Of a stretch of 64,000 nt of DNA, positions 15,401-18,400 are shown piece by piece. Where the stretch lies: NCBI GenBank assembly GCA_051294905.1, contig CM119371.1:37946001-38010000 (forward strand). The letters run 5' to 3'. The DNA comes from Botryllus schlosseri (taxonomy: Eukaryota). Position numbers and translations under genes: made by a program. Position 1 is the first letter of the stretch. Each line of letters starts with the position of its first letter. The notes below the pieces were generated by a model. It saw only the letters and a list, made by a program, of their open reading frames with translations, did no database searches and had not been told where the DNA came from.

Positions 15401-18400
15401 AATAAGGTACTTATTTATGACCATGAAGATTTTGGATTAGGTAATTCTAATCTTTGCTCCATGACCCATGAAAAACACAAAACTTGCCTCCCCTATGCCC
15501 TAGCATTTCCAAGATACAGAGCGGAATTGTTGAAAATTGTCCAAAGTTACCCCGGTTTACGGTACTGGTAAATCAATACACTTAGTGATAATCTGTTGAT
15601 CACAACTTCATATATCATTTATACTAACATGTATAGCTTTGTAGAGCATATTTCATATGCTTTGATACGACCACAATGGCAAATAGCATAGAAACTATAA
15701 CCCGCATTGATAAATTAACGCTTAGTGGAGAGGGGTGCATAATTTAAGTAGACTACTTGACAAAATCATCTACCACTATTAGATTAGAATCATTAGAATT
15801 AATACACGATTCATATTCGAATACTCGAATCATTGTGACCAATACTACTTAGTGTAGGAATATTTCAATATCTTTGTGAAAATTTTTGAAGTTCCCGAAT
15901 TCAACAAATACCGCATCTTGCCTTGTTCGTCTGTAGAGCATTCCTGGCCCAACCAAAAGTGAAGCTCCCATTTGTTGCCTCTCGTCTTCTTGTCATTGGT
16001 CTGCGAATGTTGGCAATTTAAAACTGACTTATCTCCACTATGCAGGGGTCTGTATTGAACACGGGGTGAGCTGGAACATGGTTAGGCCTACATTACAATG
16101 TTTTGGCGGCAATGAATCTCAACTACAAGTAAAAGTGTTGGAAGTTAATTTACATGTCGTCTCATTGCCACCGAAACTGTGAAATGTGTAAGATAGAGAC
16201 AGAAAGAATCGTTATTGGCCAACGCTGCAAATAAATAATATAGGTAACAAATATGCAATAAGGTGGAATGTATGTGATAGCCCTGTACAGATAACTATGG
16301 TATAGATCTGAGTCTGGCTATACCAGAGTCATCAAGCCGAGCATCGTACTAGGAAAGGAAAGGACATAGTTTATTTTTGTCCTTGATGTTTTTGTGTCAT
16401 ATACACCGACTCATAACACACAAAAACATGATCTGTGCATATGCATACCATGAATGCACGATGTGCATATGCCGCTGGACAAGTCGCAGAAATAGCCTTT
16501 TAAGGTTTTCAAGTCTTGCACCACCCCTCCATGCTTTCCCAGTACTGCATGAGCGCCAAGCGGGGAAGTCATGGATACCAGTGTTACTAATCAGGTCTTT
16601 GGTCTGACCCGGCCGGGGATCGAACCCACGACCTACCGATCAAGAAGCCGGACGCTTCACCATTACGCTATCTCGTCTTACTACAGAAGTCGTCACCCTC
16701 AAAACTTCAGATTACCACACGCAAATACAAATCTTGAAAAACAAACAAAAAAGCACACAGCATCACAGAAAATATACTGATAAATGAAAAAATAAGGTCA
16801 TGGTAAACACAATTTAGCGGTAGTTTGAGAGCAGAGAATCAAATCATTACAGAGCTCGACCAACCGTAAGTTATTTCATGCAAGCAGAGCAGACTTTTAC
16901 AAACTAACAATTTAGTCGGTTGACAGTTATTCGAGTAGGCCCACCAGTAGTTTTATATCTAGTTGCGAGTTTTGAAAAGTGAGTAGTTCTAGTTCTAGTT
17001 CTTGATTTTATAAAAGCGTGTATTTCTAGTTCTAGTTACTGATTTTATAAAAGTGAGCAGTTCTAGTTCTAGTTGCGGATTTTGAAAAGTGAGTGACTTC
17101 TAATTCTAGTTCTAGTTGCGGATTTTGAAACGGGACTAGTTCTAATTCTACTTCTACCTGCTAATTCGAAATTCGGTATTTCCATTTTTAAAGGACTTTA
17201 GTTGTAGGTTGTCAGTTTCGAATTCTGAGTACCGTAGTTCTAGTTCTAGTTGCGAATCTTGTAAATCTAGCAGTTTGCACGAGGTCGCAGGCCGCACGAT
17301 AAATCCAAAGCAAATGTGGAAAGGGTCTGGCATAAACGACTGCAGATGTCCAAAGTTGCAACGTCATGAAACCAAATCAAGAACGAACACGTCAGTTATC
17401 TATCTCGAGTCAAAGTCAAACCTACTCGCAGGATAATGTAGGCGTCTCCTACAAAGAAGTTTCCGAAGCTTTCTGCCGGCACTGGCGCCAGGTCCATGTT
17501 CTGAAAGCAAGGAATCGTTGAAAATGCAGCTGACACAACAATATGGCCAAGCCAGTAGGGGTGTACAGAAATAACTATATTGTTAGTTTCACGCAGGCGA
17601 CCAATATCGAAATTGCCAGACACACCATTACACCATTGCAGCTAATGCAAAATGACAAATGCGACTACGAATTCGGTGCCAATTTCATAAATATCTGTTG
17701 GATAATCCGATTTGTGCGAATAATTATCGAGACGACCGATTTCGAATCGTAGGGCGAGGCCGTTCACAATTCCATTTGTGTGCCTTGGAATCAACTTTTA
17801 TCAAAATACACCAACCAAAACTCTGTCAACAAAAGGAGTTCGTGCACCACTTAAAAATAGTACATTGAACGCTCTCTCATTCGAAATTTCATGCTGGTGA
17901 CGTCATATTTTGTGATACGATTGTTGATATACTATGTTCTTTCCAATTCTCTACTAGTTGCTGACGATTACCCCTGACGAGTGTCAGCCGAAAATATTCG
18001 GGTTCATTTCAATATGAATATACTATTTAATTGTATATTGAAGTTCTGTACCTCCAAGAAGCTCTATAAATATATTCAGTTACCGCGATACATGGGTTAT
18101 ATCACATCGTCGTTTTGACAGTTTCTATATAAAACGTGACGGAAATTTATCCAGATACCACTTCATACTTCATACAAATTTTATGGTGTAAAACAGAGGT
18201 TCGTAAAGTAGGCTATGGGTTGCGACCCATTTGGGTCTAAATTTGGGTCGCCAACGCACCAAGCGATATTTTGATATGCAGGGTTCTAATGACTCGAGTC
18301 ATTTTTTCAAATGTGTAAAATGACTCGACTCAAGTCAATTTGTGTATTGACTCGACTTGCACTCAAGTCATCGTGCATGACTCATATGACTCGAGACTAG

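Follow-up and report, generated by a model that had tools for sequence, protein, structure and literature searches.

A hammerhead fold with a single-pair stem II and a loop II pseudoknot ahead of the reading frame of a Penelope-like retroelement in Botryllus schlosseri

Hammerhead ribozymes carried by Penelope elements cut poorly in vitro, and in the one reconstituted system they are dispensable for insertion (PMC11167929). The ribozyme of the anole Poseidon element is assisted by protein and overlaps the start of its open reading frame (ORF), with uncut RNA serving as the main template (PMC11167929), whilst cutting as a dimer has been published for hammerheads with a palindromic stem III (PMC4209133; PMC6765202). 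Here we analyse a 64,000-nucleotide stretch of the genome of Botryllus schlosseri (assembly GCA_051294905.1, contig CM119371.1, positions 37,946,001 to 38,010,000 of the forward strand; hereafter the window, in whose own numbering coordinates are given), for which an initial annotation had proposed, at 17960-18003, a dispersed family of minimal pseudoknotted hammerheads borne by a Penelope-like retroelement. Comparison across element lineages makes it nearly certain that this is a real, selected hammerhead in a Penelope pseudo-long terminal repeat (pseudo-LTR). The best explanation overall, to which we assign a probability of roughly 0.78, is that this pseudo-LTR hammerhead stands before the start of the element's ORF, probably accounts for the greater part of the 5′ leader, and would cut as a dimer.

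Motif anatomy and conservation across element lineages

Each part of the motif was found at the coordinates first proposed for it, on the forward strand. The 5′ strand of the pseudoknot, GCUGACG (17960-17966), forms seven of seven possible pairs with loop II in a 7-bp helix, and is separated by a 3-nt linker from stem I, whose 5′ strand ACCC (17970-17973) pairs with GGGU (18000-18003). Between these strands lie the catalytic core from C3 to A9, CUGACGA (17974-17980); a stem II (17981-17989) consisting of the single pair G10.1-C11.1 (G17981-C17989), which encloses the 7-nt loop UGUCAGC (17982-17988); and GAA (17990-17992), the palindromic stem III AAUAUU (17993-17998) and C17 at 17999. The elements CUGANGA, GAAA and UH are thus present in the order, and with the stems I, II and III, of a type I hammerhead, whose numbering predicts a cut between 17999 and 18000. 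Stem III requires a partner strand, or else is reduced to a hairpin of 1-2 bp.

The extent to which chance accounts for such a motif depends on what is included in the pattern. A bare CUGANGA..GAAA pattern is near chance, with 11 occurrences in the window vs 5.2 expected and 6 of 100 shuffles as high, and a loose type I descriptor without the pseudoknot finds a site in 66 of 200 dinucleotide shuffles; with stem I and the pseudoknot included, the same descriptor has a single hit in the window and hits 2 of the 200 shuffles. An Rfam scan of the window gave no hammerhead match even at an E-value of 5, such a match being a property of the library and not part of what defines a hammerhead.

A protein-based search yielded 84 loci, mostly of one related family, from which nine lineage representatives were aligned; these were picked by a descriptor requiring core and pairing, and are not independent, their nuclease regions being 45-79% alike and those of four of them 55-79% alike. 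Both-side changes are seen in 12 of the 16 proposed pairs, and 95.1% of the 144 cells are paired, a level reached by none of 500 shuffles, slid controls being 27-44% paired. In the pseudoknot, which has six spellings and 95% of its cells paired, six of the seven pairs change on both sides, the seventh being G-U in six representatives and unpaired in three. All four pairs of stem I change on both sides (89% of cells paired). The 3-8 pair is C-G in seven representatives, U-A in one and U-G in one, and the G10.1-C11.1 pair is G-C in seven and G-U in two; loop II measures 7 nt throughout, and in all nine stem II comprises one pair with no unpaired base between A9 and G10.1. Stem III is likewise a palindrome in all nine, in three spellings (AAUAUU, AAGCUU and AACGUU). 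Its two middle bases are adjacent and so have no pairing within a strand, yet they are complementary in every representative, which points to pairing between two copies.

At the 13 core and closing positions, agreement with the window is seen in 99 of 104 cells, a value partly built in by the search pattern, vs 148 of 480 for the 60 bases upstream. When the search was made from the protein first, 28 of 31 distinct ORF starts proved to have the motif no more than 130 nt upstream, the three misses being copies truncated inside the motif. It is the covariation across lineages that bears out the assignment as a type I hammerhead whose stem II is a single pair, with a loop II pseudoknot and a palindromic stem III. 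The minimum-energy fold of the window copy, considered as the conserved structure instead, was rejected, none of its pairs changing on both sides.

The dominant related family (L002-type, e.g. L004:1955-1998) carries UUGAAGA with a U3-G8 wobble and a UUU site; among the L002-type copies listed C3 occurs only in L040 and L061, and L001 has U3-A8. The covariance model gave no match in L045, L050 and L051, and the viral contigs searched contained neither relatives nor the motif. Some further observations concern the related loci themselves. L055 (about 506 nt past the ORF end), L060 and L062 have, downstream, a second core-like CUGAAGA..GAAA with a 7-nt loop of different sequence. The animal-type Penelope elements L081-L084 come from two bacterial genome bins, most likely as mis-binned host DNA.

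The carrier element, its copies and its start codon

Upstream of the ribozyme, 17698-17865 (+) encodes the last 56 codons of an endonuclease domain, followed by a stop at 17866-17868 (feature 17689-17868), with 96% identity to the C-terminus of the family protein P0001, the relatives of which are proteins of 830-850 aa with RVT_1 and GIY-YIG domains. Where the initial annotation spoke of a GIY-YIG stop, there are only these last 56 codons of the domain, without the GIY-YIG motif itself; homology to the element family ends at 17689. A VIYL..QDNVG-like stretch at 17390-17470 was tried as the GIY-YIG motif and rejected, as it fails to align to the family protein and lies outside the element. The 3′ untranslated region, or pseudo-LTR, occupies 17869-17959 (+) and includes the palindrome TGACGTCA at 17898-17905 (+), which we take to be of CRE type. 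Beyond the ribozyme, the start codon ATG 18014 and the first 17-18 codons of the ORF (18014-18065, +) constitute the Penelope 'tail'. This sequence had been read as tail only, and an element tail it is, but not that alone, since ATG 18014 opens the N-terminus of the element's own ORF; the frame aligns with residues 1-22 of the full-length protein P0003, a match that is weak taken alone (E-values 0.04-0.26). The same order of ORF end, ribozyme and ORF start is present in full-length relatives, and each copy comprises ORF end, 3′ untranslated region, ribozyme and ORF start, i.e. a pseudo-LTR with its tail.

Whilst the window shows only both ends of the element ORF, P0003 and L007 contain a single ORF with a reverse transcriptase (RT) plus a GIY-YIG endonuclease (EN) at the C-terminus, the domain scores being near, and some below, the Pfam cut-off. 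An alignment inspected by eye shows a DKG motif, a C-x-C..H..H set (CCHH) in the nuclease and no CxxC linker, which matches the description of Penelope/Poseidon elements (DKG, CCHH in the EN, no CX2-5CxxC linker; Craig 2021, PMC8557442). Partial tandems, inverted truncated copies and an optional 30-40-bp tail are all present, as in the Penelope/Poseidon clade, and by its motifs and architecture the element fits this type. The proposal of a Penelope-like carrier is supported. So is that of very high amplification: a DNA run from the same organism has 117,804 contigs that match the 601 bases around the element, a figure that is not a copy number, and the summed depth climbs from 0.5 million over the end of the ORF to 4 million over the ribozyme before dropping to 8 in the flanks. 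The sequence ATAAATAT occurs on both sides of the element (17687-17694 and 18066-18073) as a possible 8-bp target duplication; both flanks also resemble family sequence at those places.

All 11 copies originally listed exist, and nhmmer raises the total to 13, adding 12748-12793 (-) and a degenerate copy at 9002-9051. The covariance model recovers 11 of the 13 at E-values of up to 0.017 and the remaining two at 0.094 and 0.83, together with two further weak and unrelated matches in the window. In only one of the 13 are core, stems and pseudoknot intact together, the other 12 being without at least one required base or base pair; all 11 core bases are retained in three. Core mismatches amount to 14 of 132, vs 58 of 535 in the flanks (12 copies, with the 9002 copy and two non-homologous 5′ flanks left out; p = 1.0), and no extra conservation of the core is seen among the window copies, whether CpG sites are counted (p = 1.0) or excluded (p = 0.38). 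G12, which lies in a CpG, is altered in 5 of 12 copies. The window copies are in ordinary neutral decay after insertion, and the notion of a dispersed family of working ribozymes is not supported: a single copy is intact, and changes have built up in the core at the same pace as beside it. The initial annotation had put forward stronger conservation of the core among genomic copies as a test of the motif, and it was accordingly not found (p = 1.0), but this is the wrong test because inserted copies are not under selection; the informative comparison is that across element lineages, where the alignments give a positive outcome.

The 5′ ends of the copies are staggered, corresponding to 17689, 17788, 17861, 17897, 17912-17934, 17959 and 17969, with one copy reaching deeper into the nuclease. 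A near-identical copy at 21468-21672 (+; ribozyme 21559-21602, G12 changed to A) has inverted pieces beside it at 21366-21457 and 21337-21371. A longer, decayed copy at 12043-12716 (+), which retains more of the endonuclease domain with a frameshift and one stop, has three core changes in its ribozyme (12612-12655) and is followed by an inverted copy at 12718-12793 (-; ribozyme part 12748-12793). Short copies lie at 12983-13095 (+; ribozyme 13013-13056, G12 changed to A) and 39247-39337 (-; core intact, two of four stem I pairs), with a further copy at 19171-19441 (-; ribozyme 19203-19246, U16.1 changed to C). At 41342-41632 two short, damaged copies form a head-to-head inverted pair (ribozymes 41402-41444, -, and 41563-41605, +); inverted pairs occur at three loci, as described for Penelope elements. 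A tandem array of 2.8 pseudo-LTR units of 146 bp occupies 4498-4926 (+), all three of its cores being broken, and the inventory is completed by a very decayed copy with a partly deleted core at 8966-9105 (+) and an endonuclease-end fragment at the window edge (1-178, -).

The cut site is spanned by all 13 window copies. The 3′ ends of the family cluster at 18022/18027 and 18059/18065, that is 23-28 and 60-66 nt past the cut and about 37 nt apart, and among 52 copies of the related family (some of which represent the same locus in different assemblies) 28 end 21-35 nt past the cut, 23 end 47-62 nt past it and one continues into the ORF; two other short extents among these copies are indel artefacts of ungapped extension. 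The two 3′-end clusters agree with an optional tail of 30-40 bp and with the pair of internal RT start sites reported in PMC11167929. The 5′ ends, by contrast, do not cluster at the cut, within 3 nt of which one of the 52 related copies begins. As the insertions span the cut site, their templates were uncut, or re-joined, there.

A TATA-like box lies at 17928-17934, about 32 nt upstream of the pseudoknot strand. The window copy matches at five of seven positions at -32; in run X24, 317 of 461 and 376 of 542 reads have A at position 17933, which raises the match to six of seven. Six of the nine representatives have a 6/7 match 31-35 nt before the pseudoknot strand, against a background of 37 in 1812 five-base windows. 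CTAGTT at 17954-17959, directly ahead of the pseudoknot strand, is presumably initiator-like. These positions suggest that the TATA-like box is a promoter and that the ribozyme makes up most of the 5′ leader. The AUG lies 3-52 nt past the cut in six representatives and 5′ of it in three: over C11.1 in L007 (L007:289), which has a full 845-aa RT-EN ORF, and in L081 (L081:3208), and inside the core CUGAUGA in L082 (2256-2301, -). In all three the fold is kept although the start codon has moved into the ribozyme, and making the full protein would there require uncut RNA. Between ribozyme and start codon we also noted a KTAFFKA-like coding stretch that is duplicated or out of frame (L008:1314-1410, L012:287-340).

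Several other features of the window are recorded here. A tRNA-like head at 16591-16680 (-), probably of a short interspersed nuclear element (SINE), contains words that we take to be A- and B-box-like, and ARAGORN calls no tRNA there. A weak reverse-transcriptase fragment at 10601-10945 (-; RVT_1, E-value 4e-5) matches none of the Penelope proteins tested. A 1,450-bp duplication of 99.6% identity (48678-50127 and 62551-64000) reaches the window edge, a 353-bp tandem lies at 57888-58732 (97%), and a 600-bp fold-back element at 7026-7614. A second, GACTC-rich dispersed repeat family is found at 693-1213, 18290-18770, 19437-19840, 44760-45320 and 51657-51982.

Proposed mechanism and alternative explanations

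Under the preferred explanation, a TATA-type promoter would start transcription a few bases ahead of the pseudoknot strand, and the capped, uncut RNA would be the translated form. Read-through into the next pseudo-LTR would supply the RT template, the protein binding the tail region and reverse transcription starting inside the tail, as has been demonstrated for anole Poseidon (PMC11167929), and truncated insertions would carry the ribozyme passively. Cutting would take place when two ribozymes pair via the palindromic stem III, probably with the assistance of protein, and would remove the leader with its cap, along with the AUG in some lineages, serving as a translation off-switch or in unit-length processing; it would not be a step required for each insertion. 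That cutting depends on the dimer we consider somewhat better than an even bet, whereas the role as leader and off-switch is put forward tentatively, at odds short of even. A stronger version, in which an undescribed hammerhead class forms the whole leader of a TATA-driven mRNA and acts as a copy-counting switch in a widespread Poseidon sub-lineage, is doubtful: a lone RNA would stay capped and be translated, whilst two RNAs joined on a dimeric RT would cleave one another, with loss of the cap and the AUG and release of unit-length RNA. Were this so, the palindrome and stem I 3′ strand retained by dead genomic copies could expose host transcripts bearing them to cutting by an intact ribozyme.

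Several points weigh against the preferred explanation, beginning with the relatedness of the nine representatives noted above and the fact that a full-length copy of the window's own element family was not found. The predicted ground state differs from the active fold, stems I-III scoring +5.5 kcal/mol without a pseudoknot term and a rival minimum-energy fold -10.9 kcal/mol, with a stem I probability of only 0.02 and an AAUAUU duplex worth only -0.2 kcal/mol; nearest-neighbour prediction for a dimer did not produce a double hammerhead, with software that cannot score pseudoknots. In the dominant related family, U3-G8 and the UUU site are both expected to slow cutting. The TATA match is absent from L012 and L027, two of the nine relatives. 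Three RNA runs gave 4,641, 14,610 and 9,945 reads, on both strands, of which 65-98% continue into unlike sequence, and in the 3-6% of each run that was covered no pile of RNA starts or ends was seen at the cut or at the inferred start, these libraries being ill-suited to end detection and their reads coming mostly from passive copies on both strands. The RNA reads represent passive transcription of copies within host RNAs and are neutral on cutting. A search across sequencing runs listed no RNA run on record as carrying the sequence, which likewise weighs neither way. From other systems, Penelope of D. virilis is transcribed from the pseudo-LTR by a TATA-less internal promoter (PMC2377424), and chrysovirus ribozymes with a one-pair stem II are slow, at about 0.01 per min (PMC13725137).

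The closest alternative, that each ribozyme cuts alone by means of a strong pseudoknot and a 1-2-bp stem III with the palindrome as a leftover, draws on the pseudoknot helix, which is worth -7.4 to -9.6 kcal/mol in all nine representatives and provides the best fold for nascent RNA that has reached 17999, and on a natural pseudoknotted ribozyme with a one-pair stem II that cuts at more than 1.2 per min (PMC3088659). That precedent, however, is a type II ribozyme assayed as two strands, and a monomer has no need of adjacent middle bases that remain complementary in three spellings, so that cutting alone appears unlikely. It is less probable still that the fold persists chiefly as a leader structure for binding or regulation, recognised by the element protein, ribosomes or promoter factors, with hardly any cutting in vivo. 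Such a role would sit well with the insertions that span the cut, the near absence of copies beginning there and the lack of RNA ends at it, with the success of the related family despite U3-G8 and UUU, and with ribozyme mutants that had no effect on insertion in vitro (PMC11167929); yet lineages whose proteins are 45-60% alike retain the catalytic bases and the 3-8 pair, as catalysis and not generic binding demands, and the anole ribozyme does cut with protein. The upstream CUGACGA (17961-17967), an exact match to the core in the window, L001, the L002 family, L007 and L081, might be taken for the second core of a permuted or alternative ribozyme, permuted hammerheads being known (PMC10085705). 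This possibility is negligible and was rejected, as L008, L082, L012 and L027 have no core there, the sequence in these four changing in step with loop II, and neither stem I nor stem II fits that register.

The initial annotation also raised the spread of non-autonomous retrozyme-like units, and the short copies might accordingly form a separate retrozyme- or SINE-like family that moves via small circles. The array at 4498-4926 has two identical internal junctions, each joining a tail end near 18058 to 17912; the pseudo-LTR depth in the DNA run is 4-8 times that of the ORF end; and an origin of retrozymes from Penelope pseudo-LTRs has been proposed (bioRxiv 10.64898/2026.07.22.740005). Against this, the window copies start at staggered points between 17689 and 17969, and the last array unit extends beyond the junction to the normal tail end, something a circle could not template, so that the array is not a plain copy of one; a partial tandem followed by local duplication is the simpler account. 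None of the three array units has a complete hammerhead, where a retrozyme calls for at least two consecutive complete units, and the array falls outside the working retrozyme definition of bioRxiv 10.64898/2026.07.22.740005. The tail-to-head junctions listed in the DNA run are many, each with a single-locus depth of about 20-35 vs a summed depth of 1-4 million, and no junction or unit is amplified among the best-supported joints listed; no go-back joint was among those listed in the three RNA runs, which were not made for circles. With staggered ends, no dominant head-to-tail junction among those listed and broken array cores, the retrozyme proposal is not supported, and we regard a separate circle-borne family as very improbable.

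Comparison with known hammerhead systems

The association of hammerheads with Penelope elements and the scatter of dead copies are ordinary. The shape described here is missed by Rfam, and likely by descriptors based on helix II, so that ribozyme counts in animal genomes may be low. With three palindromes, six pseudoknot spellings and an AUG inside or after the ribozyme, the sub-lineage also offers a compact test case with phylogenetic support, these natural variants making the dependence on the dimer, the need for the pseudoknot and the choice between translation and cutting directly testable.

Of the systems that resemble it in part, the chrysovirus 5′ untranslated region hammerheads (PMC13725137) are also of type I, with a helix II that is absent or of 1-2 bp, and stand in a 5′ leader; they differ in having a long helix III, in belonging to an RNA virus and in that their cutting is needed for translation, whereas the placing of the AUG within the ribozyme of three relatives speaks for the opposite here. 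Animal non-LTR retrozymes (PMC7229834; bioRxiv 10.64898/2026.07.22.740005) likewise comprise tandem type I units, of 150-400 nt, for which a Penelope pseudo-LTR origin is proposed, but they have an intact, mostly canonical ribozyme per unit and abundant circles, whereas the array in the window has three dead cores. In the hammerheads of Perreault et al. 2011 (PMC3088659) a helix joining the loop to a flanking strand replaces the loop-loop contact, as it does here, and one example has a single-pair stem II; that example is a type II ribozyme from a metagenome with, in the text consulted, no retroelement and no palindromic stem III, unlike the present motif. The hammerheads of Lunse, Weinberg and Breaker 2017, as cited in PMC6765202, share the diminished palindromic stem III, the association with Penelope and cutting as a dimer.

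The anole Poseidon element PAc (Frangieh et al. 2024, PMC11167929) is similar in the position of its ribozyme at or over the ORF start, in having two RT start sites within the ORF and an optional tail, and in that no RNA-seq ends lie at the cut and uncut RNA is the template. Its RT starts lie at ORF +111-118, whereas the ends observed here lie at about +9-14 and +46-52, and the portion of the PAc text considered describes neither the pseudoknot nor the 1-bp stem II that are present here. The minimal hammerheads of Cervera & de la Pena 2014 (PMC4209133) are of the same type I, located in the pseudo-LTR, with a short stem I, G10.1-C11.1 and a palindromic stem III; they too include U3-A8 and UUGA variants and thousands of lone truncated copies, and were predicted to cut as dimers. 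Their helix II, however, measures 3-8 bp in all 56 listed, vs one pair in all nine lineages here, and they usually have an extra base after A9 (absent in two of the 56), which is lacking in all nine here; the parts of that paper considered report no tertiary contact, whereas here a covarying 7-bp pseudoknot links loop II to the strand 5′ of stem I. The combination of a one-pair stem II with a pseudoknot in a retroelement was not found in the literature searched, the coverage of which did not extend to Lunse 2017, Arkhipova 2017 or figures. Thus, whilst a hammerhead in Penelope was already known, the one-pair stem II pseudoknotted shape, which Lunse 2017 may hold, appears as a new variant of it.

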